Shown here: positions 10,502 to 62,400 of the stretch, in pieces | Numbering within the stretch: the first letter of the stretch is position 1 | Layout of the letters: each line of letters starts with the position of its first letter | Source of the DNA: Saccostrea cucullata | Lineage: Eukaryota | Assembly (NCBI RefSeq): GCF_032062105.1 | Contig: NW_026935559.1 | Location: forward strand, 558,001 to 622,000 | Direction: 5' to 3' | Length of the DNA stretch: 64,000 bases | The notes under the pieces: generated by a model | The model's input: the letters and a program-made list of their open reading frames with translations, nothing else | Database searches by the model: none | What the model was told of the DNA's origin: nothing | Translations under genes and position numbers: made by a program

Positions 10502-11265
10502 GCATGAAAAAAGAAGAAAACACCTGTTGTGGCCTTAAGCTCAACACTTTTATAAATATATCGACGACGTATTGTCAATTAACAATAGTAATTTCCATTC
10601 TTATATCGATACGATATATCCTGGTGAGCTTGAAATATAAGATACCACCGAGTCTGACACATCTGTTTCATACTTGGACATTTTAATTGAAAAAGACGTT
10701 AATAGTAATCTAACAACCAAAATCTATGATAAACATGATGACTTTAACTTTTCAATCGTCAACTTCCCTTACCTTTGCAGCAATATAAATGTACCTTCAA
10801 CAACCTACATACGGAGTTTATATATCTCAGTTGATTTGATGCGCAAGAGCATGCTCTAGGTATTAAGCATTTCTAAAACGAGGTACATTATTGACAAACA
10901 GTTGATGAAACAAGAATATCAGCAGTCTCGTTTAAAGTCATCATTTTGTAAGTTCTATGGTCGTTACAATGACCTTGTCAGCAAATACATTTTATCAGTG
11001 AGTCAAATGCCGACTGGCGTTTTTCATACTAATTGTTAGTCCATTATTCATACCCTGAATTGACGACGGAATTATCCATTATTTCCCGATCATGAAAAGG
11101 AGCACACAGCGGATGTGACCGATCGGCAAGGGATGCTCACTCTTACATGGCCTCTGATCCCACCTCTGATGTTTTGAAGGTCCCTGTTTGATCTGCTCCT
11201 GTTTTGTATTGTTTTATGGATATTTTTTTACTTTGAATACTGCTCATTATCTCCATACGCTACAT
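10502..11265 (+). mobile_element. 5'-truncated Penelope-like element: RT C-terminal half plus conserved 3' end
   Basis: YIDDVL catalytic motif (~10556-10573), SYLDILI...IYDKHDDFNFSIVNFPYLCSN, RLKSSFCKFYGRYNDLVSKY, then the GGGATGCTCACTC..CTGATCCCACCTCTG tail. Confidence 0.88.
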
Positions 11266-11494
11266 TGTCTATCAAATAAATTGGCACATATATATATTAT
11301 ATGTTAACTTAGTGATAAAGGTTTATTGTAACATATATGAGGGAAGTTGGCAAGAGAACTAAGTCATCAATCTATTACAAAGTTCATTTTTTTTTCAATG
11401 TTTTTCTGTCGTAAATAAAAAAATATGTGTCTGACTCTGTGGCGGCTTTAATGACAAGTTCAACGGGATATATCTAATCAACTTATGAAAAAGG

Positions 11495-12030
11495 ATGAAT
11501 GAAGGATATGGATATAACAAACAGTATTCAATATCAAAGTCCATAAAACAAAACAAAAAAGGAGCAAAGCAAACACAGACCTCTAAAACATCAGCGGTGG
11601 GATCAGGTGCCATGTAGGAGTGAGCATCCCCTGCCGATCGGTCACACCCGCCGTGTCCTCCTTGCCATGATCGGGAAATAACGGAAACATCCGTCAATTC
11701 AGTGCATAAATAATGAACTAACAATTAGTATGAAAAACGCCAGTCGGCATTTGACTCAATGATAATTTGTATTTGCTGACAAGGTCATTATAACGACCAA
11801 AGAACTTACGAAATGAAGACTTTAAACGAGGCTGCTGATATTCTTGATTCATCAACTTGCTTGTCAATAATTTCCCTCGTTTTAGAAATTGTTCATACGT
11901 AGAGCATGCTAATGCGTATCGAATCAGCTGAGATATATAAACTCTGTATGCAGGTGATGAAGGTATATAGCTGCATAAGTAAGAAAAGTTGACGATAGAA
12001 AAGTTAAAGTCATCACGTTTATCATAGATC
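11495..12030 (-). mobile_element. 5'-truncated Penelope-like element copy, inverted relative to 10502-11265
   Basis: Reverse complement of the same RT end and 3' tail. Confidence 0.88.
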
Positions 12031-12454
12031 TAATTGATAAACTCATTATATGATTAACACCTTTGTTTTATCTAAGTGTCAACTTGGGGGAAAAATGAAT
12101 TTTTTGATATCAAAGTAAAACAAAAAACAGTCTCCTTCAAGAAGAACACACATCAGTTCGACTTATTATGGTACACATTTAAGACCTATGTTTGAAAAGT
12201 CCAGACTCATAATATTGGTAAAAAAACCCACCAAATTTGTTTTGCCAATTATAAATTGACTTACTATATCATATGAATACTGGCATCTCGTATTAAATTA
12301 TAGCCTATCAAAGACACTTCATTACTTATCAAATAAATATTTTCAGATATACCTTAATTCCATGTAGCCCTTTTAACGAGGTATAAAAGACTGTTTTCAA
12401 TTTAGATATTTTCCCACAAAATATCAAAATAATAAGAAACTAAAAAAAAACCCA

Positions 12455-12962
12455 TTATCACACGTCAAACTTTTCTATCGTCAATTTAACCCGTTTTATG
12501 GACATTTCTATTTGACCTGCACATAAAGTTTATATATAATAATGATGTTCCAGTTGAGCTGATAAGCAAGGCATGGTTTATATACGATCAATTTCTAAAA
12601 CAGAACAATCTTCTGACAAATAAATTGATGATATAAGGATATCAACAATCAAATAAAGTAAAATTTTACAAATTGTATGAACGATACGGCAAACTTGTTA
12701 GCAAATGCTATCTATCAATTAGTTGAACGTTGACAGAGCCTTTCATACACTGAATTGAAGACGGATTTTTCCCGTTATTTCCTGATCATGACAAGGAGCA
12801 CACGGCGGGTGTGACCGGTCGGCAGGGGATGCTCACTCCTCCATGGCACCTGATCCCACCTCTGATGTTTCGGAGGTCCGTGTTTGCTCTGCTCCTATTT
12901 TGTATTGTTTTATGGACTTCGAGATTGAATACTGTTCGTTATCTCCATATCCTTCTTTCATC
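12455..12962 (+). mobile_element. Penelope-like element 3' fragment
   Basis: Degenerate RT end followed by a well-preserved tail at 12790-12960. Confidence 0.8.
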
Positions 12963-20385: not shown

Positions 20386-21745
20386 TTGTGTGTATTTTTT
20401 TAACACTATCTGTAAATCTACATTGTTATTACAGTGTATATGTACATCATCAATCCGATTGTTTTTCATAGTTTTATCCTTGAAATAAAATTATCTATCT
20501 ATTTTCAGCTTCCCTTTGAACTGGATCTCTTTATTTCGGAGATTTTATAATCTTAATTCTTTGTCTTCATAATTTTTTTTTAAAAACAAATATAATTGCT
20601 TACTACAGTATTTAAGTCTCTTTTTAGACAAAAAAGAAATGAATGATATCGTTCATTATTAAATGTATTTTATAAAACTGGAAATTGTATATAGTCTTTG
20701 GGGAAAAAATTATTTTAAATGGCCGAAGCTCCATTTGCACAGTATACATTGCAACATGAAACATATGAAGATAACGAACAGTATTCAAGATTAAAATAAT
20801 CATGGGAGCAGAGTAAAACGGACCTCCAAAACATCAGAGATCAAGTACTATGGAGGAGTGAGTATTCCCTGCCGACCTATCACGCCCGCCGTGAGCTCCT
20901 TGTCATTTTCGGGTAACAACGAAAAAACCCGTCGACAATTCAGTGTGTACATGGACTGACAATTAGTATGAAAAACGTCAGTCAGCTTTTGACTCAAAGA
21001 TAAATTCTATTTGCTAAAGAACATACGAAATGATGACTTTAGACTGTTGGTATTCTTGTTTCATCTACTTGTTTGTCAATAATTTACCTCTTTTTCGAAA
21101 TTGTTCATACGTAGTACATGCTCTTGTACATGGAATCAATTGAGATATATAGAAACTCCATGTTCAGGTGATGAAGGTAGATCGCTGTATAAGTAAGGGA
21201 AGTTGACGATTGTGAAGTTTGTCATCACGTTTATCATAAAGCTTGGTTGAAAGATTACCATAAACGTCTTTTTAAGTAAAATACCAATATGTGAAACAGA
21301 TGATTTAGACTTTGTAGTAACTTTTATATCACGCTTATCAGGATATATCGTGCATAAGATAGGAAATTATCACTGTTAATTGACAATACGTTGTCGATAT
21401 ATCTTAACGTCGAGTTGAAGGCCAAAGCAAGTGTTTTCTTCTTTTTACGTATAAAATTTTAGGCAAAGTCTGCTTCAAATGATTACATAAAAAGGTCCGC
21501 TAATAACGGGGCACAACTGGTACTCATGGGAATTCCAATAGATTGTTTGAAGACCTAGTCTCCAAAATCAACATATATTGTCAATCAGAAACTCAAGTAT
21601 GATTTTGATGTCAACTTGAGAGTACTTTTGTGTACAATCAGAATGTTTTCAACAAAATAATTTTGAAAAGGACCAATGACCTGATAAGTAAATAAACGGT
21701 TTCATTATATTTATTGAAAAAGCATCTGTCAATGATATAAAAAAG

Positions 21746-24360: not shown

Positions 24361-26643
24361 TACAATGTATATACAATGTATATATTCAAAAGAAAGGAGA
24401 ATTTCAAATTTTTAATTGAAGAAGTAGTTGTCTATGACATCAACAAATCCCGGTTTTAAACTCATCATGATTAATGTTGATAAAATGTAGAAAAGTAAAA
24501 CATATTGGAGTAACTGACTTTTGCAAAATTTAATGCATCAAAATCACATTACATTGATAATGCCCATGAATATGTTACGATATACCATGTATAATATTAA
24601 ATTTACTTTCTTGAGGAGGGGGGGGGGATAAGAAAAGTTGCATAACATATATTTATTAAGTAATGTCATGTCCTAAATTTTGAACTTATAGGGTAGAAGA
24701 AAAAAAATCAGAACATGTCAAAATCAGTAACATTCATAAAGAAGCGTCGTCGTGTACTGTATTTTCAAGGTTTTTCATTGATGATCCCCTGAGGTAAGAT
24801 TGTGATCACATACTAGTATGACATTTAAAATTATACATAAGAATACTCATATGTAGGAAACATTTCTAAAGTCTTTTTTATTTTCTTTCAGGCAGTATAT
24901 TGGATTAATTTATAAAATAGGAAATTTATTTTATTTTGTTTTAATTTTTGTCCATCAATAAATCTACGGTCTATCCAAATTTTCATTCCACTGTGATATG
25001 TGTATCATTTAGTTTTGAATCTGGAAATCAAGAGAATAAGGAAATAAAATTTATGTAAAAAATTAAATATTTCCTCGGTGTCAATGCATGGTTAAATGCT
25101 TCATACCTCGTGAAAAAAGGAAACTAAAATTTAGATATGAAAAAAATTCTCCCCAAAACAGCACTCAACACTCTTACATTGTCTACAGAGCCTTGAGGCG
25201 ACGAAAATGTTGTGAAAAAAGAAAAGAAAAATAAAATAGTTCGAAAAACATCATAAATTTTATCTAAAAATAGATTTAAAGTTATCTTGAATTGGATCAT
25301 GTTTTATTTAAATGGCTTGGTTTAAAAAGGTGTTTTCCATGCCTTATTTTCTGCGCTGATATATATCTGGTTTATTTTTGTCCAACTACGCCATTATCTT
25401 ATATCTAACTTGTTTGTCATTCCTTTTATAAGAAGTACTCAGCTTTTTTCTACAAAAATTAGTTTAAAAAGGTTAGAGAAATTAAAGATGAAATGATTTA
25501 TAAATTCTTTACTTATATTAGGAAGAGTCGCTTACTTCGAATGTTTTACTTTTATTGGAAATGTTTCCGTATTTAAATGTATCTTTTAAATGCGCAGAAA
25601 TAGACAGACCTAGTGCGCATTATGATATATTTATACATTATTTCATTTCTAGAATTTTAAAACAAGAACGCAAAAAACAACAAAAATGCGCAAAAAGTTT
25701 TAAAAACACGTATGCAGAAAGCTCGAGAATGATATATTCATACATTATTTCATCGCTAATTATTCAAAACAATATAAAAATATGAAATAAGGTAACTTCA
25801 GATGATTTAAATCCATTACTTTTGGGAGGTAATTCATTCAAGGGTTATCGTTATTTGCCGACACACCAGGAAGAAGCAATGGAGCAGGTACTCTTTCAAA
25901 ACATTTGCAAAAATTGTTTATTGTGGAAATGCATTTTATATGATTATATATATATATAATTATGGAACTAACTACATTGAACGTTTCTGAAAAAAAAAAT
26001 GAATTAAACATCAAATCTGTAGGGTTTTTAAAAAAAAAATGATTTTTCAACTTTCGTTTTGATAGATTAGCTTATACAGATTAAAGATTTTGATGAAATC
26101 AAATGTAATTTGATACATTTGGTTATATAGCATTGACTATTAGTAACATTTTCATTTGGATTACCTTTTAAAGTTTATTTATATATATTCCAACAGAATA
26201 TCTTTTTAAACATATATTTATATACACGCAAAAACATTGAGGAAAGTTTATATTATAAGGCTAAATATAACCTTTTCCGGGTCAATATTGATACTTGGGT
26301 TGTGTCGCGAGAATAACTATGTCAGCTTGCAAGGCTGGTATGAATATACAGGCTTGATACGAATAGTTTGGCGTCATGATAGTATATCGAAAATACTTAA
26401 TTATTATTAAATATATTTAAGAAAATTAAATGCATTTAAGATATCATATTTTCATTGTGTTACATTAAAAGTTTACATTTCAATTTAACTTATCTATCAC
26501 AAGCACCACTCTATTCAATAAAACTTTTTTTCAGGCGTATATGTGTACATATCTCTAAATTACTGAGACTGTTTTCCTATCTTCATACCAAATCCAATGA
26601 TGATTATTTAGTGACTTCCACATCAGACAATACTTACGGAATA

Positions 26644-29205
26644 ATGAAAAGCGGATTAAAATTATGTGAGGGCAGTATGAGGCTATTGATACCATTTGAT
26701 AAACTGAAAGATTGTTGCAACGAAAATGTAAATTTACATCAGACGAAGTTTTTACTCTCCTCGCCTAAAGCAGACATTGATTTGATTAAAAGGTTCTTTT
26801 CATATCAGGTACTTGCTGGTGTCCTTTTGTACAAAAGCTTTTTACATCAAATACTCATTGAATACATATTGCATAATGGAATAAATGTTTCCCCATTGGT
26901 ATGGGAATTCATACGCAGAAGTTCCATATCACAAGAAAATAACACTACAGACGCTGATGATCAGGAAAAGAATGATAACGAGGCTAGGGGAGAAAGGTAC
27001 AAAGATCCTTTAGGGAAAATAATCAAAAGCCCTGTAATTATAAATTTTCATATCAGTAATACTTTAATAACTTTTAAAGCATCTTTAAAAGATATTAAAG
27101 TAACTGAAAACAAATTAAAAGAGAAACATTTAACACTGCAAATGTTATCCACTGTGAATAAAGAGAGAGATGCCTTTCATTGTAAGGAAAATAAATGGTA
27201 TAAGGAATTATTTCTGCGTGAAAGAATAAATCCCCCCATGCCATTTCTGATATTGCCAGGTACAATAAACCAAAGTTTTAATAAACTCTCCCAAGGAACA
27301 CCGCCTGATGATTTTGAAATAATGAAATTTGAATTTCACAGATTAAGCTCATTTAGCAACTTTACCTTTCCCGATGTACCTAGTTCTATAATTTTGGCCA
27401 AAGCAGGATGGTTTGCAACAGGAAGCGAAAAAGAAACAAACACTTTTTGTTGCCTCAAAGTATATAGTAGATGGAAAAGAAGCGATGATCCGCATTATAT
27501 TCACAAAATGTTATCACCTACTTGCTTCTTTATATTAGGGAAAGATATTGGACAGATTTCATTTCATGATAGGGCTTTGAATGACAACAATGAAGCATCT
27601 GTGGATAATTCAAGGAATAATGGTTACCTTCCTGGAAATCAGCATAGACATTATAGTAATACATCCCAAGAAATTTTATACCAGAGAACTAACGATGTGG
27701 AATCACTGACGGATGAAATTGGCCAATCTTACACAAATCCAAAGGTTTTCAAAGAAGAATTAAGCGAGTGTGACAACGAATCGTTTGCCCAAGAAAGCGA
27801 AAATCCTGAAATACATTCTACAAACAATGTATCGCATTTGAATTGGAGCCTATCAGATGCAGTATATCCAAACCAATCAGAAATTGAAGCGAGGATAGAA
27901 AGCTTTTCAATGATTAATAAGTCTCATTATGCATTAAAAATTGGACCGGGCTCAGAAAATTTTGTTATTGCGAATAAAACCGCGGAGGAATTTGCTAGAG
28001 CTGGTTTATTTTACCGTGGATTCCGCGACAGAACTTCTTGTTTTTACTGCGGGATAGGTCTTCAAAATTGGACCTCCCTCGACAATATCATACTGAGACA
28101 CTACCAATCAAGTGGAAATTGTCCTATAGCTCAGGCATCAATACATGAAATAGATGCTGATAGAAATACATCATCAAGTAAGTCAATTTAAGTGTAAAAA
28201 CCATATAAAAATTGCAATAGATTACATGTATACACCTTCAAAACAAAAATTCCGCCGAAATATGACTGAAAAATTGCCGACTCGACGTTAAAAAATATAC
28301 AATCAATCAATCAAAACACAAAAAAAAATTTATATAAGTACCTGGAATTTGCAGGACAGGCATCCAGAATCCTCTTTAAGTGATCTATAATTTTTTTAAG
28401 GTGAGAATAGCGTTGCGGCTTCTCCGAATCAGAGCAGAGGGTATCCTCCAGATATGGAGGGAATTTGTGCTGAACTAGATGAAATGGGATTTGATGAGGA
28501 GTTAATCAAAGCGGCCATTGAAAGTTTAGGGCATCGGGGAAGTGAGTAGAAATGAAAAAGAGATATGTTTAATACAATAAATATATCTTTAAACATAATG
28601 TTATGATCAATTACACTTTAAATTATATTTACAGATAACAATATACTCAGTATATTATTGATACTTAATGGTGATTGTTCAAAAATTGTGTGTACTTTTA
28701 AAAAGTCTGACAAGTTTTCGTATTTGAAAAATAAATAACAAGATATATATTTTTAAATTCATGATCAGTTACCATAAGCCTAATAATTATACTTTCAGTG
28801 ACATGCACCAAAGAGAGAATTGTGAATGAAATTCTAGACAATAGAGCATCCTTGCATTCTGGATCGTCGATTTCTGGGAGTGCCGAATATAATTCATCAG
28901 AATATCAAGAATCAATAGAACCCTTGGAAAATCCGCGCATAGAAACGGCTTCCGGTGAAAATGCCGAAAAACCAACAGCGCCTGGTGAAAAGATTGATAC
29001 GACAGCATCTACTTCAAACCTGAGAGAACAGTCTGATGATGAACTGCGCAGGCGCGTCACGTGTAAGGTCTGTTTGTCGGAGGAAGTAGGGGTTCTTTTT
29101 CTACCCTGTAGTCATTTGGTATCTTGTGTCAGTTGTTCTCGGAGGTTAAAGAAGTGCCCCTTATGTCGAAAACATATTCAAACAAAACAACCCATGTTCT
29201 GGTAA
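26644..29205 (+). CDS. IAP/BIRC gene 3, at least 693 aa (exons 26535/26644-28177, 28401-28541, 28799-29205): orphan N-terminus, BIR1 (Cys->Thr), BIR2 with insertion, UBA, RING
   Basis: RLSSF..AGWFATG..TFCC-x16-H-x6-C; AGLFYRG..CFYC-x16-H-x6-C; UBA LDEMGFDEELIKAAI; RING CKVC..PCSH..CVSC..CPLCR; phase-1 GT-AG junctions. Start is uncertain: acceptor at 26534, first in-frame ATG at 26644. Confidence 0.88.
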
Positions 29206-29648: not shown

Positions 29649-32442
29649 CTAATATCGGCATTTACATGGCTTGCCCTGTAATGAAAAAAAAAAAATTCTC
29701 TTTAGTATCCTTGCATTCAAAAGACATAAATCGTGATCTAAACGTAGAGCTGAAGTAGAAACATACCGCCTTCAATTCACAAATGTAGTAGTGTTCCTTC
29801 ATACAGTTTTCTACGTGCCAGTGGTATCTATACGTGTGCCACATTATACCACAGTGGTAGTCCTTGTGTTGGTGGAATTCCGGCTCGTCTCCAAACCAGT
29901 CAAACTTGTGACACAGCGTGGTGCTGAACCCCCACCTCCAGCTGTGTTTTTCTATGTCAGATAACTCATTAAGTCCTATCCAAGCCCCCTGGTCAACTGA
30001 ATATGAATACAAACATGTTTTATTTCATGTCAAGCGTGATACATTTTCGACTGATTAAAAAGAATAAAATTCAATGTTATCAATTTAAAAAAATATCTTA
30101 AATCTGCATATGGCTTTTGCTTTATATTTGGACATATGTTGTCCCTTGCTATGCACGACTGATTAACGTATAAAAACTAACTTAAAGAATCTATTACATA
30201 AAGAGAATGTCTATATGTTAAAAGCGTACACAAACATTGAGCTAATAATATTTTCCAGCAGATAATTTGAACAATGGTGAACTTATTTTTTTTTAATACA
30301 TGTTGATTATTAAAATCTGGTTTTATATTCTATAAAATTATATAAAATACTTGAATATTTTTCAAACTAACTTTCATTGGATATAAGAAAATTTCTGAGG
30401 TAAGTATTCTCATGGGCAGTGTTTATGACCGCCAAGTAGCCGCCCATCGACGCACAAGTCATCTGCAAGAAAAACACCAAAATCCAAAACTTATCTTCAG
30501 GTGTTCAGACCATTATTCTGTTACATGCATAGAATGTAATTGTACATTTTTTCAAGAACTATTAGACACAAATTTTGTTTGTTTGTTTGCATTTTTAACG
30601 TAAATATTCAAAGCGAAAATTTGATATACTTTAATTAGTGGGAAGATTTTTGCAAATATTCATTATGATAATGTGTAGTATTGATTTTCATCTCGTTGTT
30701 ATTTACTTTTTGAAAAATATTTCAACACATAAAAACACTATATTCTAGAGACATCTAAACTTACCGTAGCTTTATACCAGCTAAGTTCGTCTCTGCTAAA
30801 GTAATAACAGCTATCGTCATACTTTAACCAAGCATAGGGACAGCTATTATTTTCAAGGTGTGGCTCTACTGTATTCAGTCTGAATGTTTTAGGCTGTTTC
30901 GGGGGTGGAGGAGGAGTTTTTAGTCCGCTGATATCTATTCCAGCTTTGTAAGATCCAAGGTGGTATCCTTTCTTGTTGTATCCCTTAACATGTGATGGTC
31001 GGTACTTTTTAAGATAAGTCTTGTAGTATGATTGGTAGTTTCCTTTAGAATAGGATCCGTCAAGATAATGCAAATAAATTTTTGGATAGTATTTTTGTAG
31101 GTATGTCCAGTACGCCTGACTATACCCACCTCTGTAGTTTCCTGTGTGGTACAAAATGTTTGTCCCAGAACCTCGAGCCCTATAAGAATTTTTCGATTTT
31201 TTGTATTTTTGTTTCTTAGAGTAACCTCTTTTCATGTTTCGTTTGCCTTTCTTTCGATAATATGAAACCTTGTAATATTTAGTTTTTCGATATCTTCGAA
31301 ACGGTCTGCGATAACGTCGTCTTCTTACACGGCGATAAGTTGAACGGTACTTCCGTCGAATGTAATATCGACGGCCAAGAAACGCATTCCTATATGAACG
31401 TTTTACAATATGGTGCGAACTTGTAGCACTCGTCAAATTATTATGGGATTGTCTTTGTGGTATGAAAACTGGATTCTTTAGTAGAGATCTCAGTCCATAC
31501 CCAACTACAGCTGCAGATTTTATTTTTTGTGCCTTAAATGTTGGACTTATAGATATAAACAGTGGATATCCTTTTAAAGAACCAGAAAGAAGCAGACTTC
31601 GAGGATGGACCTGTTGAGTCGAGCTAGGCAATGCACCATATACCCTTCCTTTTGAAGACAAATTCTTTATCAATTTCCACAAAGACTTTTGAGATAAAGT
31701 TGGAGTAAATTTCACAGAAGGATAAGAATTTGAGTTTTCATTTGTGTTTATTTGTTTCAGTTTATGTAATGGCTTAGCTATTGGCTCACGGTGCAGAACC
31801 CAGCGATACCCAGAGTGTGTACCTAGGTTATAGCGCTTCGCCCGCTTTTTACCAGTTGTTACTTGTGCCTCATCCATTTGATTCATGATTTTTCGAGCAT
31901 TAAGTTTATCCATGATATCATTCATCTGAGGCAGGGGTTCCCCAGGGTTTGAATCATTAATAGTTGTTGGTTCTGGTGTGGTATTAGGGTCAAAAGGTTT
32001 CGTTACCGTTTCGTCCCACGAGTAAGATTCATTTGGTTTAGCTGTTGTTTCCCACGAGTAAGATTCAGTTGGTTTTACCGTTGTTTCCAACGAGTACAAA
32101 TCAGTTGATTTTGTTCCAATTTTTTCTAATCTTTGCTTTTGTCTTTCTTTTTGGGTTTCCTCTGTTTTTTCTAATTCACTTTCGACACGAGGATCATTTG
32201 GATAACTATTATCTTGATCATCACTCCCGGTTAAACCATATGTTGTGAAAGCTAGGAAAAAACGTTTTTATTGACTCTAGTTTTTGATAACGTACTAGAC
32301 AAATAAATTTTCATGATGAAGACTATATCAGCTAATATTTAGTTTCCATTATCTTTTTAATAACCACAAAAAAGATTGAAAACTTACCCCATACATAGAG
32401 AAGTAAAACGAGTGTTAGTTCAACAATGGATACTGATGTCAT
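29649..32442 (-). CDS. Secreted 629-aa protein: signal peptide, acidic/Thr-rich repeats, Arg/Lys/Tyr-rich domain and C-terminal C-type lectin domain (exons 32442-32388, 32251-30765, 30462-30372, 29996-29767, 29675-29649)
   Basis: MTSVSIVELTLVLLLYVWA signal peptide; CTLD CPYAWLKYDDSCYYFS..WYKAT|MTCASMGGYLAVINTAHEN..|AWIGL..EPEF..HCG..WHVENC..YICE; terminal exon GKPCKCRY*. All junctions are GT-AG and in phase. Confidence 0.9.
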
Positions 32443-34944: not shown

Positions 34945-35635
34945 TATAACGAATAGAATTCTAGCCCAAAAGTCCAATAAACAATACAAAATTTGAGCAA
35001 AGCAAACACAGCCCAAGTCGGATCAAATTCCATGGAGGAGTGAGCATCCCATTAATACCGGTCACAGCCGCCTTGTGCTCCTTGTCATGATCGGGAAATA
35101 ACGGAAAAATCCGTCGACTCGACAATTCCGTGTGTATACGGCCTAACAAGTATGAAAAACGTCAATCAGTATTTGAATCAGTGATAAATTGTATTTGCCG
35201 ACAAGGTCATTGTAACGACCATAGAACTTACGAAAATGATGACTTTAAACGAGACTGCTGATATTCTTGTTTCATTAACTTGCTTGTCAATAATTTACCT
35301 CTTTTTAGAAATTGTTCATACGTAGTACATGAATTTATGAAATTGTCCACATGTACACTTGTAGAGCATGCTCTTGCGTATCAAAGCAACTGAGAGAACC
35401 TGTATGCAAGTGATGAAGGTATACCTGGTATAACTGCATTAGTCAAATATCTAAATATGAAACAGATGTGTCAGACTCTGTAGTATCTTTTATTTCAATC
35501 TCATCGGGATAAATCGAATCGACAAAAGAATTGACATAACCATTGTAAATTGACAGTGCGTCGTCGATATATCTAAATGTCGAGTGTGAAGGCCACAGCA
35601 AGAGTTTTCGCGTATAACATTGTAAACAAAATCTG
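34945..35635 (-). mobile_element. 5'-truncated Penelope-like element copy
   Basis: Minus-strand RYIDDAL (~35555-35575), RT end and conserved tail. Confidence 0.85.
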
Positions 35636-37052: not shown

Positions 37053-37175
37053 TATATAAAGAGCCTCCAGGCTTTTAATTTTACATCAAACCTAAGGTTA
37101 CCTCTGAGCTGGACTTAGAGGAATCGGATTCCAGGTCTAGTTATTTGCTGTTTGTCGCGGAAGATATTGAGGAAG
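37053..37175 (+). promoter_or_regulatory. TATA box and non-coding first exon of orphan secreted gene A, ending in a GC-AG donor
   Basis: TATATAAA at 37053-37060 in a GC-rich context; AAG|GCAAGT at 37175/37176; the next acceptor at 37552 directly precedes the ATG. Confidence 0.65.
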
Positions 37176-37552
37176 GCAAGTTATTCTATTTATTTATATT
37201 GATAGCAAATTTTGCAAACAAAACCTTTGGCATCGCTTTTTAAAATACTAAAGAAATTAGTTTTAAAAATGGAAATATCTGTTTGTGTTGAATTCTAAAT
37301 AATTTTAACAGTCAAAATCTTCTTTCTGAATGATAAAATGCGATGATAAGTAGTGAAGTTTTGAAATGAAGTTAAAGTACAAATTAAAAAGATGCAAAGT
37401 TTATACAAAAATTATGCAATCCAAGCATCCCCTGTCACAAATTACAAAAAATACAAAATGTAAACAGAAAAAAAATCAAAGATACTACTTGTACATGAAC
37501 ATTACATGTTAACTTAACCTGTAAAATAAATTTCCCTTTTTTTGCCTTTAAG

Positions 37553-38583
37553 ATGCGTTGCCTGGTCATCTATGCTGCATTAGCTATATTTGCTGGTCAA
37601 ATATTTGCTCAGGTTACCGAGCCAGTACCCAGGAATGGTAAATTGGTTTCCTTTTTAAAAAATGAAATATTAGATAAAGTGGCTAAAACTGAAATTCACT
37701 TTCCCTAGATCTTTTCAACTTTCTTACGACTAAGATAAATTTTGACAACTCTTTATATACAAAATTTCTCTAAAAGATCATCACAATACCGGTATATCAT
37801 AATATTTTAATGCAATATTTTTTTACTGTAACATGCACCTTCCAAAACTTAGATTTTAAAAAAATCTAAATTTATATACATACTCTAACTGTAAAACAGT
37901 CAATAATATTTTCATATTAATTATATAGCTCTATTTACACATGTATAAAAAAAATTTCATTTACTCTCTCAGGAACTGAAAGGCCTCCAATAGAAGAAAA
38001 GACCGTGGCTCCAGGGGGTGAAAATATTACGGGAATTCCAACAGAAGGTGACAAAACGCCACCAGCTCTCCCTGGCGTTGATCCATCCCCCGAACCCGAC
38101 CACGACGGAGAAGAAACCGGAAAAGGAAAAATCTGGAAGAATCGCATCGCCAAGTGGAAGAAAATGCGATTGAACAAGAAAGGTCCAGCACAAGAGAAAC
38201 CAGAAATCAAAGATGATGAAGAGCCCGGACAAGAAACACGGGATAAGGCAAAAGGACCAAGACCTAATGGGAAAACTGGTAATTATTTCTTACTCATTTG
38301 TATCTAGAGAACAGCAATTAAATATATTTTTACCATTCATTTACGTTTCCAGTTGCTAAAATACAAGTACATGTAGTTTATTCATCACAAGAACTAAAAA
38401 ATGTTATGAATATCTTTTGTGTAGAAAAAAATAAAAATGAATTCACATAAAATTATATTTTATCTGAGTTATTAATTAGAATTCAACTTAAATGAAGAAA
38501 AAATAAATTACATCATTTCAGATAAGGAACGTCGACCAAAATTTGGAAAACGTAGAGAAAGGGGGATGAAGATCTTTCCATGA
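37553..38583 (+). CDS. Orphan secreted protein A, 150 aa (exons 37553-37637, 37973-38278, 38522-38583)
   Basis: Signal peptide MRCLVIYAALAIFAGQIFA; Pro/Gly/Glu-rich region; cationic core KIWKNRIAKWKKMRLNKK; tail DKERRPKFGKRRERGMKIFP*. Phase-1 GT-AG introns; AATAAA at 38778. Confidence 0.85.
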
Positions 38584-43046: not shown

Positions 43047-43761
43047 ATGCGTAGCTTGATTCTGCTTGCATTCATTGGTGTGTTCACAGCGCAAGTTTTC
43101 TCCCAACGCGTTGGTATGCTTTACATCTATTAAAGAATGCAATAGTGTGATTTTATATCTATCATAGAATGCAATAGTGTGATTTGCTGTTTATCTTTCT
43201 TTCGTGTATGCTTAAACAAATCTAACAAACCAAAATACTAAGAAATCCTGTAACATTTTATATGTGTATTAACATAATTATAAAATTTGAAATTCAAAGG
43301 TAATGTTGATAAAACCTTACCACCTAAAGATGGAGCAATAAGCAGAAGACCGAAAGTGGATGACAAAACTAAAGGACCCGGAGACGGAGGAATAACAAGA
43401 CCAGTTGTCAATGTCAGAACGAGGCAACCAGGAGGGGTAACAAGAGGACCGGAAGTTGGAGATAGAACCAAGGGACCACGAAATGGTAGAGTTACGAGGA
43501 GACCTAAAAATGATGACAAGAAAAGGAAACCAAAGAAATTTATCAAAAAGATCAAGGGAGGTAAGTCTATTTAAAAAAGTGTTGCAGTTAGTGAGATATC
43601 CCAACATTTTTTTTCATTGTTAAATAATGCTTTTAACCTTTATCTCTTTAATAGGTAAAGGACTTGGAAATATGAAAAAAATGAAGCAGAGGTTTACAAG
43701 AAAAATGAAATCCTTCATGAAGATGAAGAAAGGCATGTTCAGGAAACAGAAACAAAATTAA
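43047..43761 (+). CDS. Orphan secreted protein B, 144 aa (exons 43047-43113, 43300-43560, 43655-43761), paralog of gene A
   Basis: Signal peptide MRSLILLAFIGVFTAQVFS; four ~17-aa repeats (D[K/R]TKGP.DG.[I/V]TR.P); Lys/Met-rich tail. Same exon and phase layout as gene A; AATAAA at 43877. Confidence 0.87.
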
Positions 43762-46814: not shown

Positions 46815-47689
46815 TCATTTATTATAGTGACATTGTGCATATAGACATTTCTATAAACATTATAAACAAAATACGTCAGACTGAATTTGCACCCGGCCCA
46901 CTGGACCTATAAGTCACTTTTTCCATTAATTACATTTATATAAATTTACACATGCAGAAGATTCTTTCTATGGTTAAATGCTGTATGGACAAATTTGGCT
47001 AATTTTATCTGGTAATTTTGGTTTAAAATTTTAAACAAATAATCATAAGATGTGATCAAGATTAGACCTTTTATTAAAATTTGGTTGACATTTATCCAGA
47101 AACGATCTGAGAATGTCGCGTCCGGTTGGAGGTGGCGGGTTTCCACTTTTCATAATTAATGGCGTCAGTTTGAACTCTGGACATTTTCTCGGCATGTCAA
47201 ATACCAAAATCGTGAAAAACGACTGGAAAACATAAAAAATGTATAATGGTACAAACAGCAGTCATGCTCAAAGGCCCATTGAAACGATAAAAATTATAAT
47301 AAAACAAAGACGGACCTCTAGAAAACTCAAAGGTGGGAACAGGTGCCATAAAGAAGTACCGTATTCCTCTGTCGACCAGTCACATCCGTATGCATATAAA
47401 TTAAAAACTGTATTCAATGTGAATATATATACAGCCTTAACAATTTCTATAGAAAACGACAGTCTTCATATGTCTGAATAGCAGACTGAAGTGCACTCAC
47501 TGACTTTTACATGTGCGCAAATTTTATTCTTGCGTGATGTGTAAATATAATTTCTGCGATGCGTCTACATATATACACTCTCAATTCAAAGTATTTTGTA
47601 AATGCTATGACAAAATAATTGTTGATATTCAACTCAATATTCTTCCCACATACTGAAAATTAAGAACTCTACCATTTCTTGCTTATCTT

Positions 47690-47855
47690 GACATAATCAT
47701 GACAAGGACCACACGGCGGCTATGGTCGGCCGACAGGGGATGCTCACTCCTCTAAGGCACCTGCTCCCACCTATGATGTTTTGGAGGTCTTTGTTTGTTC
47801 TGCTCGCGATTTGTATTGTTTTGGTGGACCTACGAGATTGATTGCTGTTCATTAT
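47690..47855 (+). mobile_element. Penelope-like element 3' tail only (a shorter inverted remnant is at ~47280-47390)
   Basis: CACGGCGGC..GGTCGGCCGACAGGGGATGCTCACTCCTCTAAGGCACCTGCTCCCACCT. Confidence 0.75.
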
Positions 47856-52903: not shown

Positions 52904-53406
52904 AATATTGAAAGTAGATTCAAAATCTTAATTTATTTTACATTTGACAATCCGGAAGACAAGCCCCTATATGGCATAAACTGGATGAAATTATGTAAAA
53001 AATGTCCTATCTCATGTTACAGCTTTTGCAATCTTAAGTTACACGCAGCTTTTTGCAAACTGGTTGTACCTCTTTTGATTATAATACGGGAGTCAGTTGT
53101 CCTGTTTACAATTTAACATTTGGATTGGTTTTAATAAAAGATTGTTTATATATATCATATTTGAATTCATTTCAATATCTATTCCTTTGAATATTTTCTC
53201 TTTTATTGCTTAAAATGAAAAAAAAAAGTGAAAACAAAAACGTGTCCAATCTCACATATCGTCAAATTGGGGATTTAAAACCCGGCCCTACTTAGTACTA
53301 GATTTACCGCCTTCTCAGAAGTTGGTCAATACCAGCTAGAACCAGAAGCGGACTATTAACATGATTAAAATAATTTGAGTCTGCATTATCATTATGTCAG
53401 ACTGTA

Positions 53407-56400
53407 ATGATTGTTAGGTTTATCACGAAGACACTATTTGCGAAGCCACGGACAAATTTTCTACTTAATAAGATGGAGGATTCCAAAGTCAGAGCTTTAT
53501 GTGACGAATTCTGGGACTGGAGGATGCGTCAAAGTCCGGAGTTTGCCTCATTCTGCGGAGATCAGAGATATTGTCATCTTTTGGATGATATCGACCCAGA
53601 CAATTTTGAGGAGTTTGAGGTAAATTTTGAGTTATCAACCACATGACATGGTGTATTATTTAATCTTTAATTAGACAGTATTAGAAATAATTCAGAGCCT
53701 AGTATTGATAATGTAGATGCATGCCTAACCTTAGAATTCAGTATTTTTTAATTTAAAAAACAGTTGTGTGTTGACTCTAAACCTGTTCTATTCAGTTACA
53801 CAAGGTCATCCATTTGAGTTTTTTTTTCATATAATTTTTATGTGAAATGTTAACTCAGTGAGATTCATAGAGACTTGTAACAGGATAGGAGGAAATGTAT
53901 GGCTACTGACCGGGAATCTAACCCAGGACCCCTGCATCACTGGTCATTGGTCAAGTGGTCATGTGCTCTACATATAGCTATCGAGGGAGATATCCATGGC
54001 CAAAAGCATTACATTCCCCCCACCTTAAATGGTATATGGCCTCAGAGCCACAACCCAAGTTCTTCATAATTAGCCCCTGGCAGAGCTTTCACCTGCAATT
54101 CCAAGTTCAATGGCACCATATATCGATCTGAAACGGAAAAGGAGGAAATGTATGACTGGACCAAACTATTACAGACTAAAAGTTTTGGTCTGGTGTCTCT
54201 GTGAATCTCAGACTTAGTGTGGAAGCATTCTTGGTAGTGTAGATTCTAAATTTTACAAACCATGAACCCCCTGGGTAGGAAGGGCTGGAATAGGGAATCC
54301 AAATTTACATTGAAAAATGTAGGAAAAATCTTTAAAACTCTTCTTCTCAATAACCACTGGGCCAGAAAAGCTGAAACTGATGTGGAAGCATCCTTGGGTA
54401 GTGTAGATTCTAAATTGTCCAAATTAAGACCCCGTGGGGTAGGGTGGGGTCACAATAGGTATTACAAAGGGGAGGAGGCATCTGGTAAAGAAGAACAGGT
54501 TTACTCAGGTGAGCGATGTGGCCCATGGTCCTGTTGTTTCCAATGGCATTTGGATAATTGGATTCTGGACAGAAAATGCAAATATATACAGCGTATTAGA
54601 TGCATGGTGTATATTTATGTGATGTGAGTTGCCAGTGACCAGTCCTGTTGTTTAAGGGGCCAATGGCATTTGATATAATTGGCCATGTCCCTGAAAGACC
54701 TGCCAGAGAATCGGAGTATATATAGAGGCCAAAGACCTTTTAGATGCATCGTCGCCAGTATATTTATGTGATGTCTGACCAGAGATTCAGGGGGTCTGCA
54801 GGGGTGTGCAGTGACCAGATAAAGTTACTAGCCCCAAGTGAAAAGTTACTAGCCCAAATATAGGGGCAAAAATTAAAATAAAAAACAATACATTGAAAAG
54901 AAATTACTTGTTGAAAAATGCAGGGTACTGAGGTCATTCTTTTTAAAATTAAAGTTTAATTCTCACTATGAAATTAAATCATGTATAAATTATAATGAAA
55001 GAAGATTAAAATGAATTTAAATAAATTCTTTCCCATTTTTCTGAACATTGCACTAGCTCATTTAGAATGAAATTTAAATTTTGTATTTGGTGTATTTTTG
55101 CCATGTAAAACCTTAGCTTTCAGTTAATTGAGTGATCGTAAATAATTTCAAGATACCATGTATTTACCATAAACGAAAGAGGGAAATTGGCGGAAAAAAG
55201 ATGTTTTCAGGAGGCCAAAGACCTTAAAGGTGAGAGGAGCATGTGGTGAAAACTTTTCACTGATGGGAATTTGATAGCAAAAACGAGTGAAAATGCAGGT
55301 TGTGCTTTTCATGTATTGCTTGTGTAGTTATAATTTTTACATGAAAATCACTAGCCCGACCCCAAAAAGTGATAGCCCCGGGCGTCGGGCGATGCTAATT
55401 GCACACCCCTGGGTCTGGGTTCGAATCACAGTCTGGTCCATTTGCATATTATAATTATAGTACTACTCTTACATCCTTTTTGTATAATTTACCATAATGA
55501 TAAAAAAAGTTATAGCCTCTTAAATTCAGAATGGTATTAAATGATGTAAAATGAAGAGTGTTTTACTATTTATTACCTTCTTGTTGGAAAAACTTTGCAT
55601 AAACATAACTAGTTTTGTAATTTATTTATTTTCAAGTGCTAAGCCCCTGCATATGCCTTTGTTTGTTTATCTCATTTGATTACATGGAAGGCAAAGGGAT
55701 TTATCAGTTTTATTATACATATGTAGGTTACAACTTTGTTTATTTTATTTTACAGGAAGATGTTTCCAAAATGTTAGAGAAGGCAGAAGCAATTGAAGTA
55801 AAGAATTGTTCCAAACGTGCCAGGAATGCCCTCTTACTTGTGAAGGATCAGATGGACACATTTGTAGATGGAATGAAGCATAAGTGGTTAAGCAATAGTA
55901 ATATTTACTTCAAGGATCACAGATATCATTTGTTTTAGGCCAACAATAAAAAATGATTTGTTTGAATAACTCAGACCAGCCAATCAAAATTGCCCCTCCC
56001 CCCAATCATTTTTTCAGCTCTTTGTATTTAAATTTTTTTTTTAGCAATAAATATTTAAATATTTTTACGATGGCCTTAGAGATACTGACAAAATGGTCAA
56101 AATCTAACAAATCATAGAAACTATATCAATTTATACAGTTGAACTTCGGTATCTCGAACACCAGCTTTGTCTCGAATACAGTGGATATGTCAACGTGATT
56201 TGGAAGTCCCAACCACTTACCGGTATTCTTTAAGTATTTTAACTTTGATTTCTCGAATCATCAGATACCCAGGTTTTTCATACTCCTAGGTCCCACTGAG
56301 TTCGAGATAACATTTAACAAACAATCTTAGAAGAATGGTTAATATATTCAGTGGCATGAAATGTAGTAAACAGCTTAATCTTGATGAATTTTAGTAAGGA

Positions 56401-59400
56401 AAGAAATATAATATCCAGTGTAATTTTTTCAGCTGGTATTTTCCAATCAACTTTATGGATGGGTTGCATGCAGATGCTCCTAAAGTAATGAGTACCTGCC
56501 CAACCAAAACAGAAGAAGACTTCAAAAATCTGAATAAAAGAATTAGATGTTATGAAAAGAAGGTGAGTTGGTGATCTTTATACTGTAAAACGAGAAAAAT
56601 TGGCGCATAAGCACTTTGGCACAAATGCAAGTAGGAATGCATTGACGCAAATAAATTTTAGTGCTTGCACTGTCATTAAAATATGTAAATGTGATATTGT
56701 TTTCTTTTATCTATGCCCGTATTTGACTTTTTGGTTAGTCAAGCATGGAAACACATAGCACTCCCGTATATAAGTAACTTGACATTCGTCAACTTGACCA
56801 TGGTGTTACAGTCACATGAGCGTGGCACAATGTCTATTTTATTTTAATTTTTTTTAAAAAGAAAACGATGAGTATTTACGCAATTTATCCATATTAAAAC
56901 AATGCATGCATTTAAAGGAAGTTGCATGTACTTAGATACATTGTAAATGGTAATCAAAATCAGGTATTGTCTGCAAGTTCAATCGCCATGCTTGATTGCA
57001 ATGTTTACCTCGAGGCGATAGATGATTGACACATGAGACGCCAGACTTTGAAGGTGCTAATTATACTATGTAAGTATCGGGTAACAACTAACAATAGTTT
57101 AATTAAATTATAATTTGGCAGAACTTTCTCTATCGATCCTACAGTGCTAGTTTGTATATAAAAATCCAATGACCCTTCGACATTACGTAATCGTACGTTC
57201 CGGTTTACATGTACTTATGTGAAAACTTTGAACACACACAAAAAGTAATATTTAGAAATCCATTAGCGCACAATAAATTTTAGCGTCATGGGGCATTTAC
57301 GTCAAAGGCGCTAAAATTAGTAGTGCGCCATATATTGTCGTTTTACAGTATGCAATACAATGAATACATGTACCATAAAAATTGTGAATACGGTAATTAC
57401 AGAAAAACAGTTTAGTACAAACACGGATTTTGCGAATTCAAAGATATAGTGAAGTTATTTTGGATCCCCAGCTATATAAATTTAACGAATTCCTTACATG
57501 GATATAACGAATTAAGGATATAGCGTTGCTTGAAAATCAATAGACCATAACAAAATCAGGAGAGTTATTTGTATAAAAGCCAAAATTATACCTGTTGTTT
57601 AAAGTTTCAGCTATCGATTATATTAGAATACAAAAATACAAATTTTCGAGTAAACCTTCAGTTTTGCTTTATAAGCATAGTTTTGTAGCTATTGTTAACT
57701 TTTGGAGTAGAGATTTTTTGTTTTCTTGTAGGCCAAAAGTTGTATACACCTTCTGAAAGAGGGAGTGGACCACGGTCATGTTAACCATCTATACTCAATA
57801 GTAAGTCAAATTTATACTTCACTTCTGTAACTTATATAAAAGATGAAATGATGATATGGACAGTTATATTGTTGGACGAAATGGTCTATTATTGTTGTGT
57901 GTACCATTTAGGAGGGTGTACCAGATCAGTTAGATCTGTTGATCAGTGCTGAACTGACTCCAGAAACAGATGTTTTTCTAGCACCTTACAAAAAGTTTCC
58001 TGCATCCATTGATCCCTCTATAAAGTAAGTGAAATAAAACTTACAGAAATTACTCAGTTCATTTTCTCAAACTTTTAAAGACTGAGATTAGACTTGATTT
58101 AGTCACTGGAGATTGTTTAGCATCAATGCTTTTTAGATTTATAGTGGTCATAAATTCATGGGTCTCTTCATGCCTCAAAAACAACAAAAATTGAACTCCA
58201 AGGGAAAAATAGTACATTGTAACTTCACCATAAATACAGACCTGTGAATAATTATAAAACAGAATGATTCAGGGTCTGTGAAAAAGAGAAAAATTCTGTT
58301 ATTTTATATTGAACATGGTGCATTTTATTTTTTTGCAGGTCTGAGACAATAGCTCAATTAAGTGAATACATCTAATCAAAGATTGTCCAGTTTCTGTCTT
58401 ACATAGTGTGCTCTAAATGTTCCCTACTGATGAAAAAATCCTTATAGTTCAAATGAAAAACCATGTCCTCTTTTAAAGGGAGATAATGTAGAAATTTGGT
58501 TGTTTTCTTTTTTTTTTTCCTCAAAAACCAAAGAAAAAAAGATGAAATCACATATGGAGGTTTAATTTTTATTGGTCTTGTAGTATATTTTTGGTTTACA
58601 ACAAAATGCTATTTTTTTAAATACTAATAAGAGTATCATGTGTCTTCTATAACCACTGAATTAAATCTCCTCAATCCAAAATTTTTTTCAATCCTCAAAA
58701 ATAAAATCGCAGTAATTTGAAAGCAGAACACAACAAATACATATATATATATTTTTGTTCATTTTTGACTTCAGAGAACAACTTTTAGAAGAAGCAAAAG
58801 ACATAATCCAAAACATTGTAAGACCAGCATTTAAAGAACTGGCTGAATATATAGAAAATGTAAGTATGTAATTAGGACCCTGCAGTGCATGTACCTTAAA
58901 GTTATCAATTTGTCAATCTGTTTATATGTTTCCTTTTCAACCTATCTTGCTCATACTCTGAAAGTGCCCATGCATAAGTATAGGGTATGCAATGACCTTG
59001 ATTTAAGTTCTAGACTTAAGGTCAAAAAACGCCAGTGTAAAACACTTGACTGCATCATATTTTCCCTCCCTTGGGCCTATCGGGTTCATTCTTTACTTTG
59101 TTAAATTCCCAGTTGTAAAGCAATGACCTTCAACCATATTTAAGCCAGAAGTCAAAGTTCTGAGCAAATTATTTTTCTTGGATATTTTTTCATGGATCTT
59201 GATTTACCTGACCAGTTCTTGTGATTAATTTGTTTGCAGTGACCTTAAACCAATGTCAAAGCAGTACTCTGTGTAAAAATTGAGGATTTCAAGGTCAAAG
59301 CAGCCTTTTTTTATCAATTAAGACAAATGTTAGACTTTGTTCTTGGGCCTATGTAGCAAATATTTACCCCTAAGAGTGCCCTCAGGTATTAAAAGTGCAC

Positions 59401-62400
59401 AGAGTGTTTGAATTATATATATTCTTAACTTATTATGCGCCCGGATCGATAGATCCGAGGCTTATATTGTTTTTGTCCTGTCTGTTTGTCTGTTTATCTG
59501 TTTGTCTGTCTGTCTGTTGTCAACTTTAACCTTCGCCGTAATTTTTGAACCATGAAAGATACAGACTTCATATTATGTTTGCATACTCCACCAATAAAGT
59601 TCTTTCGAATGACACCAAGGTCAATGACCTTGGGACCTTGACTATGACCTATTTGCTAAAAATAGCTTCTTTGAATTTTCGCCATATCTTTTGAACCATG
59701 AGAGATAGAGACTACATATTTGATATGCTTACTCCACCAGTGACGCTCTTTCAAATGACACCAAGGTCAATGACCTAGTGATCTTGACTGTGACCTATAT
59801 GCTAAAAATAGATTTTACAAAATTTTTGCCATAACTTTTGAACCATGAGAGATAGAGACTTCGTATTTGGTGTGCATACTCCACTAATGAAGTTCTTCAA
59901 ATGACACCAAGGTCAATGACCTTGTGACCTTGACTTTCACTTATCTGCTGAAAATAGTTTTTTTAAACTTTGTTGCCGCCGGCGCATAGTGTTTCACAAA
60001 CACATCTTGTTTTTAATGTTAAAAATGTCATGATTTATTTAACAAATGATTTCCTTAAATGTGCATGCTTACAGATGGAGTTTTTCCTATGTGGAGTTCA
60101 GGAAAGATCATGTTTACCTTGACTTGTTCTGTTCCATTCTAGGATTATATGAAGCACTTGCGTGAAGATATATCCATTCACTCCCTCCCGAATGGGGAGG
60201 AGTTATACCAGGATTGTCTAGATTTCCATCTTTCTTTCTCAATGACCCCACAGCAAGTGTTTGACATTGGGACGGCAGAGGTGGAGAGAATCACGCAGGC
60301 GATGCACAAGATCACCCTTGAGGAAGGCTTCGGAACAGATATTATGAAGTTTAAAGAAGACATAGTCAAGAGGGAGGAGTTCCATTGCAAAACTCCTGTA
60401 GGTTTATTTGGTTTTTTACATAGGAATCATGTTGTGGCTATACAGTAAAACTCGGTTATAGCGAAGTCCTGGGGACCTGCGAATTTACTTCCCTATATCC
60501 GTAATTTGTTATATCCGTATAACGAATTCTTATAACCATATGTAGCGAATTCGCAATATGAATGTTTTCTCTCAAGTATTAGAACCAAATATGTTAGTGA
60601 AGGAAATGACAAAACAAACGTTCGATATCTAAGGTTTTATTATGAATCGAATTTTATATACAAATGCTACAAGAAAAAAATTAAGTTTGTTCAATTTAGC
60701 AAATTTTGAGATCTTTGAAAGTTCTTTATAAAAGATGTAAATTTCATTATATTTAACCTCAACGGGTCTCAAAATCAGTTTGCTATATCCGTAAATTCGT
60801 TATATCAGAGTTCGTTATAATCGTAAAATTTTACAAAGATTTGTTAAGAACCAAAATTCGCTATATCCGTAAATTCGCTATATCCGTGTTCGTACTAAAC
60901 AAGTTTTACTGTATAAGCATGTTTGAAATATAAAATTGTTTTTTTTTCCTATGCCATTCTCACATTTGTTCTCTTTCTCTTTTACAGGAGGAGCTGATAG
61001 CTTATGTCAAACATATATGTTTTGACCAGATTCAACCAAAGTTACCACAATTATTCTTTGAATCTCCAAAGTCCAAGCTAAAGTAAATGTTTCTCTTGCT
61101 CTCTCTTTGTCTTCTCATCAGGAAAAGATTAAGAATGTGAGATCTGAATATTGATTAAGAAAGTACACTATAACAGGCTTATATTGAATTGACATTTACA
61201 GCCAAGTGATAATCATTCCCCTTGGCTGTAGAATAAATTTTGAACTCGGCGATTCACTTTTATATTGAAGAAAAATCGTCTGTCCCAGGAACTTTGTTAT
61301 AAGCTTGTTTTTACTGCTTTATTTTTCTCTCTACTTCATGCTTATAGATTTAGTATAATTTTTTAGCTTGTTATCTGTACACAGTACAAGATTATCTGTT
61401 GAAAGGAGAATAAAATACTATGATAATTTACTATACTGTTTTATTTACCGTTAGGATTGAGCCGACTCCCCCGCTGATGGATGATGGGCCTGTGGCATTC
61501 TACTTCAATGGTTCCCCCGATGGCTCTAGACCTGGTGTGTACTATATCAGTACATCTAACTTGGAAGTAAAGTATGTCATAAGAAACATTTACAGTGCTC
61601 ATACAGTGCTCCTGATAAATGTCTATCAACCCTGCTGACTGTTAATGCTCACTGGAAACGTGGACATTTACATGTTAAAAAGATATTTTTAAGGAAATAT
61701 GCGATTAAATTTTTTTTATGCAAATGCCTTTAATCATATTTGATTTGGTTTTCACAATGCATAAGCCCTGTATGGCAGGAAAAACCCTTAAAATTATATC
61801 CCACTTCTTATTTGTGTAATAAGAGAGTGTAAATAGCCAAGTTTGCAGTATATGAATCGCAGGCACTTGTTTTGTGTACTGGACACCCCTTACTTATTTT
61901 ACCACAAGGCACTTAAGTCATTTTACTAATTATTACTTATTAACTTACTTTAGAATGATAATGTTTGCTTCAAGAGACTTTTTTTCTTGTCTATTAAATT
62001 GTTTAAGACATCTCTGGTAGAGCCTCTTTATTGTAAACCACTCATTTATTCCTGAAAATTACATCAAGACATTTTAAGACTAGATGGGATTCAACTTTCG
62101 GGTTGGGGGTACAATAAACCCAACCAAAAAGTATCCCATCCAAAGTTTAATATGTATCAAGGTCTAAAATAATTTTTTTGACAAGAAACAAGTCTCAAGA
62201 AGCAAATGATGTCACATTTTAAAGTAGGTTAATGATTGATGTAGTAACTAAATATGAGCTTGAAGCAGGGGTGCCTGAAAATTATTAAAAATAAGCAGGG
62301 GTGTCCTGTATTTGAAATAAGTGCCTGTGACATGAATGCTACTTTCTGTGAACTTGGTGCAGTATAGTAATTTTTGTGTAATTTATTTTCAGTCCAAAAT

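Follow-up and report, generated by a model that had tools for sequence, protein, structure and literature searches.

A conserved, penetratin-like cationic helix in a predicted secreted protein of the oyster Saccostrea cucullata

What is a fragment that reads like the third helix of a homeodomain doing in the middle of a predicted secreted oyster protein: was it captured from a homeobox, does it carry the protein into cells as penetratin is carried, or has it been kept for something else? The 12-residue motif, KIWKNRIAKWKK, is encoded at 38128–38163 (forward strand) of the 64,000-nt stretch of S. cucullata contig NW_026935559.1 analyzed here (“the window”), as codons 81–92 of a spliced 150-amino acid gene, gene A. 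A preliminary description of this DNA had reported the motif correctly, and proposed that it is a natural secreted module, cell-penetrating or DNA-binding, that arose by convergence or by capture of a homeobox fragment. The observation is confirmed and the interpretation partly supported. By sequence comparison and structure prediction, the Trp helix of gene A is genuine, cationic and under constraint, and the protein that carries it is undescribed and predicted to be secreted; neither homeobox capture, the most striking part of the proposal, nor DNA reading of the homeodomain type is supported.

The gene A product is identical to the uncharacterized NCBI protein XP_062581442.1 (LOC134243227). 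All features of the gene are on the forward strand. A candidate TATA box is at 37053–37060, and a non-coding exon 1 (37102–37175) is represented in one RNA contig, which does not fix its 5′ end. The open reading frame, the NCBI protein and RNA contigs define exon 2 (37553–37637), with its ATG directly 3′ of the acceptor and a predicted signal peptide at approximately residues 1–19. Exon 3 (37973–38278; open reading frame, RNA contigs, and charge count) is the long coding exon, comprising an acidic Pro/Gly linker, the cationic helix, a second acidic linker, and a basic stretch; exon 4 (38522–38583; open reading frame and NCBI protein) encodes a basic tail with the sequence G-K-R-R, and the stop codon. 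RNA-type contigs from related oysters, ~90% identical, show the GT..AG splice 37637/37973 in four of four runs; contig depth has a ~300-fold spread between runs and cannot rank expression. Intron 1 (37176–37552, junction placed by eye) appears to be a GC-AG intron. Sequence searches of the S. cucullata genome with exon 3, with the whole protein, and with exon 3 of the neighboring gene B (see below) found only the genes themselves; gene A is present as a single copy as far as such searches reach, distant paralogues lying beyond them. Relative to this genome, most of the related RNA contigs have a 24-base in-frame insertion at 38087–38088, shared with S. echinata but absent from the contigs of run X3, and a 6-base deletion at 38215. 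Contigs of runs X3 and X6 have a one-base deletion at 38561 that shifts the frame just after G-K-R-R and shortens the tail.

Secretion is predicted from a signal peptide judged by eye and from a predicted helix at residues 2–21. The only Cys and Tyr of the protein fall within this signal, and the mature chain has no tandem repeats. AlphaFold, supplied with a 10-sequence alignment, predicts just one further helix, residues 76–96 (pLDDT 82 for residues 81–90), with the rest disordered. Net charge alternates along the chain, from –9 (residues 20–77) to +10 (79–98) to –4 (99–121) and then +9, so that the conserved cationic block (residues 79–98; 38122–38181), set in the predicted helix 76–96, is indeed flanked by acidic stretches as first described. 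The further suggestion that these mask the motif until cleavage lacks a cleavage site: there is no KR or RR closer than 40 residues to the Trp in any of five motif types, and the helix therefore probably acts within the whole chain. Its hydrophobic moment is unremarkable (muH 0.18, with 3902 of 5000 shuffles as high; 0.18–0.31 across types, above shuffles in none of the five), and a strongly amphipathic lytic helix was rejected on this basis. A 16-mer containing the motif has a net charge of +7 (+5 to +7 across types), a low moment and two Arg; helix 3 of the genome's own Hox proteins has the same charge and an equally low moment.

Domain and structure searches added little. Pfam searches with exon 3, the whole gene A protein, four homologues, and exon 3 of gene B gave nothing above cut-off; Foldseek found no match to the low-confidence gene A model, and a PDB profile search yielded one weak match (E 0.62). 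Residues 70–104 had no feature match in the Atlas, and the structure rows were uninformative. The sea urchin Sp185/333 (SpTransformer) proteins, which are secreted disordered immune proteins, were the only Atlas feature match for the whole gene A protein, with a score of 0.75, below the level that shuffled proteins often reach, and no alignment. Literature searches with WKNRI and with the gene and protein identifiers gave no match, within a scope that excludes most subscription papers and proteome supplements using other identifiers, and topical searches found nothing on gene A by title or abstract start. The motif is absent from URP20 (PMC8399951) and from the entries listed in a Crassostrea gigas mucus peptide table (PMC11432763).

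How good is the likeness to homeodomain helix 3? The near-match originally reported was to a composite template: among 24 real helices the best agreement is at 9 of 12 residues if one deletion is allowed, and at 6 of 12 ungapped. The two losses noted at that time are upheld. Among the best 30 of 136 PF00046 matches in the genome, a set without K50-class members, an aromatic residue at position 49 is found in 30 of 30 (24 F, 6 Y), with Asn51 three residues after the Trp, and Arg53 is likewise found in 30 of 30; the motif has no aromatic-49, its Asn is two residues after the Trp in all types, and Ile, invariant across homologues, replaces Arg53. With both of these residues lost, a DNA-binding module of homeodomain type is not supported. 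Asn51 and the basic residues at positions 52, 55, 57, and 58 are present in both named Saccostrea proteins, but position 55 is Glu in the other types. No ~60-residue three-helix homeodomain fold was found in the gene A protein by AlphaFold helices, Pfam or Foldseek, in agreement with the earlier remark that no other homeodomain helices surround the motif.

For scoring, a helix-3 set was picked by the pattern W-F-x-N-x-R (24 of 30 loci, 23 without a stop). Invariance within a set chosen in this way is circular, and the counts above were therefore repeated pattern-free on all 30. On a PSSM built from the 23 sequences, with a 5-bit gap cost, the motif scores 27 bits with one deletion and 5 ungapped, compared to 24–52 for real helices; none of 3000 shuffles of the 20-mer reaches 27 bits. 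The per-position probability of such a score is ~4e-10 at average composition, but 1e-6 to 5e-5 at the local K/W/R-rich composition. A composition-corrected HMMER search with an own-genome homeodomain profile gives 1.0 bit (E 890 for 35,000 proteins). In the PDB, the top match to residues 79–98 is the N-terminal helix of an unrelated protein, a plant cellulose synthase (6wlb, residues 124–140; E 7.1), which matches IWKNR...WK ungapped and shows, as a control, that such a word can arise more than once on its own; no homeodomain was found at E ≤ 10. The caution that the likeness could be due to chance thus receives a mixed answer, the PSSM score beating the shuffles and HMMER giving little. As a pattern the likeness is genuine, and rare in isolation, but it is not significant by those tools, and a scan of many windows against many famous motifs would be expected to meet such cases.

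The relatives of gene A tell more about what is kept. Three proteins came from a full HMMER search and 10 from a profile search; with those added through cluster look-ups there are 54, most of them alleles of a small number of types. The one named homologue is S. echinata LOC133185080; the others are Logan proteins, likely from other oysters to judge by their 35–45% identity and the same exon end. (Residues 1–78 of the S. echinata model, ahead of the signal peptide, include a transposase-like helix-turn-helix stretch that is below cut-off and likely a gene-model artefact.) Homologue motifs are KMWKNRIAKWKK (one protein), KEWKNRIAEWKK (15), KKWKNRIDEWKK (5), and KKWKNRIDELKK (31), with one further protein in which Gly replaces the first Trp, which is otherwise present in 53 of 54. 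The conserved core is KGKxWKNRIxxxKKMR; residues K79, G80, K81, W83, K84, N85, R86, I87, K91, K92, M93, and R94, mostly basic plus W, N, I, and M, are invariant in the 10-sequence alignment. The penetratin look of the motif comes from its Ile, Ala, Lys, and second Trp, and it is these that vary. Distant types have one or two fewer positive charges and have often lost the second Trp, and one type has Asp-Glu in mid-helix. The pattern W-x-N-R-x-x-K-W, put forward as a check on orthologues, holds in 2 of 54 proteins including the query and fails in every type not named Saccostrea; it also holds in RNA contigs of related oysters, from runs that were found by exact words. Over five types the helix-3 PSSM score drops from 27 to 20, 13, 7, and 3 bits, while the block itself stays conserved. 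As the homologue set is unrooted, it is compatible both with a rise of the likeness in Saccostrea and with its loss elsewhere, and the ancestor may have been as penetratin-like as Saccostrea.

Compared with the rest of residues 30–122, the motif is better conserved in four of four pairwise tests, significantly in two (identities 11/12 vs. 59/81, p 0.15; 10/12 vs. 31/81, p 0.004; 9/12 vs. 28/81, p 0.01; 8/12 vs. 31/81, p 0.06). In the flanks, 12 of the 14 codons changed in the RNA contigs (from 15 differences) are changed non-synonymously, and there are indels in addition. Positions 38089–38188 form a change-free run of 100 nt in four of four runs, with p 0.003 at face value; this was not counted as independent, because runs found by exact 31-letter words need such a block. 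Several elements of the module first proposed are upheld by these comparisons: the block is better conserved than the remainder of its exon, predicted to be helical, and strongly cationic, and its first Trp is kept.

The explanation given the most weight here, at about an even chance, is that the helix binds polyanions (microbial envelopes, sulfated glycans, mucus) in a mucosal or surface defence role. Selection would preserve a short helical segment, with its seven basic residues and W-I-W/L anchor, between drifting linkers, which suggests a segment that folds on contact with a polyanion. W83, I87, and W/L90 would serve as the anchor; the seven invariant basic residues, including the BBXB motif KKMR, would grip the polyanion, and the acidic linkers would damp the helix in solution. 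BBXB is described as a heparan-sulfate-binding motif in PMC9495127, but so short a motif is common in Lys-rich sequences. The absence of a Pfam family, the presence of only two predicted helices (signal and 76–96), the fast-changing flanks, and a neighboring gene B that is still more cationic are all consistent with a defence role, as are the signal peptide, opposite-charge blocks, and intron immediately before the ATG, which recall the mussel myticalins as these are outlined in PMC5577615. Of the features of linear cationic antimicrobial precursors, gene A has a signal peptide (by eye) and a cationic segment with an anionic spacer, but its helix is non-amphipathic, unlike those of classical lytic peptides. 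Also counting against polyanion binding are the PSSM score, which puts the S. cucullata match to helix 3 beyond simple chance, the type with Asp-Glu in mid-helix, and the invariant Gly, Asn, and Met, which charge alone does not explain and which could indicate a specific partner.

The comparison with myticalins is by description; none was among the gene A matches in the HMMER and profile searches. According to PMC5577615, they share with gene A a signal peptide, cationic and anionic blocks, a mature part without Cys, and a possible Gly-basic amidation signal, and at the gene level a non-coding first exon, an intron right before the ATG, and a phase-1 intron. They differ in having three exons with the mature peptide on exon 2, where gene A has four with the helix on exon 3; in a conserved KR separating the cationic peptide from the anionic tail, where gene A has none by the helix; in a hypervariable cationic part, which in gene A is the conserved one; and, by eye, in their signal-peptide consensus. 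Molluscidin and CgPrp, described in the same paper, are like gene A linear, cationic, Cys-free, and from oysters, but molluscidin has dibasic repeats and no signal peptide, CgPrp is Pro/Arg-rich, and the descriptions given there include no Trp helix for either. On sequence grounds gene A is neither a homeodomain nor a myticalin, but belongs to a broad kind of lineage-restricted secreted cationic bivalve proteins.

Gene B (43047–43761, forward strand; 43047–43113, 43300–43560, and 43655–43761 in the predicted model), 4.5 kb downstream, is likely a tandem paralogue. It would encode a secreted protein of 144 amino acids with a net charge of +33, with a similar signal peptide, the same exon layout and the same intron phases as gene A, and without the WKNRI block. 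The signal similarity was reached by none of 2000 shuffles, and that of the mature parts by 53 of 2000. Its Lys/Met/Phe-rich C-terminal stretch is amphipathic in the best two of seven windows (117–132 of 5000 shuffles), and of the two genes it is B that comes closer in appearance to a classical antimicrobial peptide precursor; no gene B homologues were found within 47–151 aa. The linear defence peptides known from oysters, a farmed group of animals, are few; this undescribed gene pair, with its conserved cationic helix, is a cheap candidate for antimicrobial or glycan-binding tests.

A secreted, low-complexity, lineage-restricted, and fast-evolving build is typical of shell matrix proteins, and gene A has such a build. 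It could conceivably be a shell, periostracum or cement protein, a disordered charge-block chain binding mineral or acidic matrix proteins through its cationic helix, although we consider this unlikely: its mature chain lacks tandem repeats, Cys, and Tyr, and the literature searches gave no match for gene or motif. A C-type lectin gene with a Tyr/Lys/Arg-rich block ~5 kb upstream points in the same direction, but neighborhood alone is weak evidence.

Somewhat less likely again is a docking or signaling helix for a specific partner such as a receptor, an enzyme or a gamete-surface protein, possibly in a hormone-like precursor amidated at G-K-R-R. The invariance of G80, N85, and M93 besides the charged residues would fit such a partner. 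So would G-K-R-R itself, which may be an amidation signal: it is near the C-terminus of both named Saccostrea proteins, with different tails beyond it, and apparently, by eye, also in the RNA contigs that carry the frameshift, which falls just after it. The residues preceding G-K-R-R vary, however, exon 4 was not seen in the Logan homologues, and KR or RR is absent around the helix. Nor does gene A resemble the oyster GRWRN precursor, and WKNRI is absent from the supplement to that report (PMC8398477).

Natural cell entry appears improbable. On this reading the motif would be a secreted cell-penetrating module, penetratin-like by convergence, that takes itself or a cargo through the membranes of host cells or microbes. 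Once inside, it would bind nucleic acids or some other target, and gene B would belong to the same undescribed peptide family, armed in a different way. Penetratin and the gene A motif share a cationic helix, the letters KIW..NR..KWKK, a net charge of +7 per 16 residues, and a low moment, with two Trp in Saccostrea; the gene A motif is one residue shorter between W and N than penetratin, lacks aromatic-49, and has Ile for Arg53. Unlike a homeodomain (PF00046), it has no helices 1 and 2 and lies in a predicted secreted, disordered context, and the likeness fades in relatives. High positive charge and an anchoring N-terminal Trp, as in penetratin-type peptides, are found across types (+5 to +7 per 16; Trp in 53 of 54). 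In vitro, however, uptake into cells is seen for many cationic Trp peptides whose role lies elsewhere, and the motif is Arg-poor (2 of 16) and without a release site; distant types, moreover, have fewer charges and often no second Trp. In penetratin uptake Trp48 matters most and Trp56 less, according to PMC11053488, and the near-invariant first and variable second Trp of the motif mirror these weights; with its Hox-like charge and moment, the peptide may therefore be taken up by cultured cells, whatever its natural role. If cell entry were that role, the helix would amount to a secreted penetratin that arose with no homeodomain involved, and its natural variants (Trp/Leu, Lys/Glu) would form a ready structure-activity series.

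The DNA bears on descent. The best match of the motif's 36 bases to the genome's homeoboxes is 29 of 36, to homeobox L014, and 3092 of 20,000 synonymous recodings do as well against the same 23 homeoboxes (K50-class outside the set), so that this is the amount of likeness the amino acids alone predict. A 100-nt DNA search with the motif region, the sole test covering the K50 class, found gene A itself only. The motif is very probably not homeobox-derived, and its penetratin likeness, strongest in Saccostrea, is best explained by convergence of composition. A captured helix 3 that later decayed in a secreted gene would account for the gapped 9/12 identity, the 29 bases and a PSSM score near the bottom of the range for real helices, but is highly improbable given that DNA match, the mid-exon position with no helix 1 or 2 remnant seen around it, the two changes required at positions conserved in all 30 homeodomains, the invariant Ile in all homologues, and the single HMMER bit.

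Elsewhere in the window, the C-type lectin gene (PF00059; ~29700–32260, reverse strand) has a 499-codon open exon with an acidic Thr-rich start, a KKRAKR site, and its long Tyr/Lys/Arg-rich block, and may resemble matrix or adhesive proteins. At ~1100–29200 (forward strand) are tandem inhibitor-of-apoptosis-like genes, with BIR and RING confirmed for 26440–29205 and two more RING/BIR-like exon sets recognized by eye. Exons of a larger conserved-looking gene, possibly DUF885-like, occupy ~53400–61600 (forward strand). One interspersed repeat, recognized by similar translations, is present in several copies on both strands (11041–12940, 20791–20980, 34971–35170, and 47641–47850).
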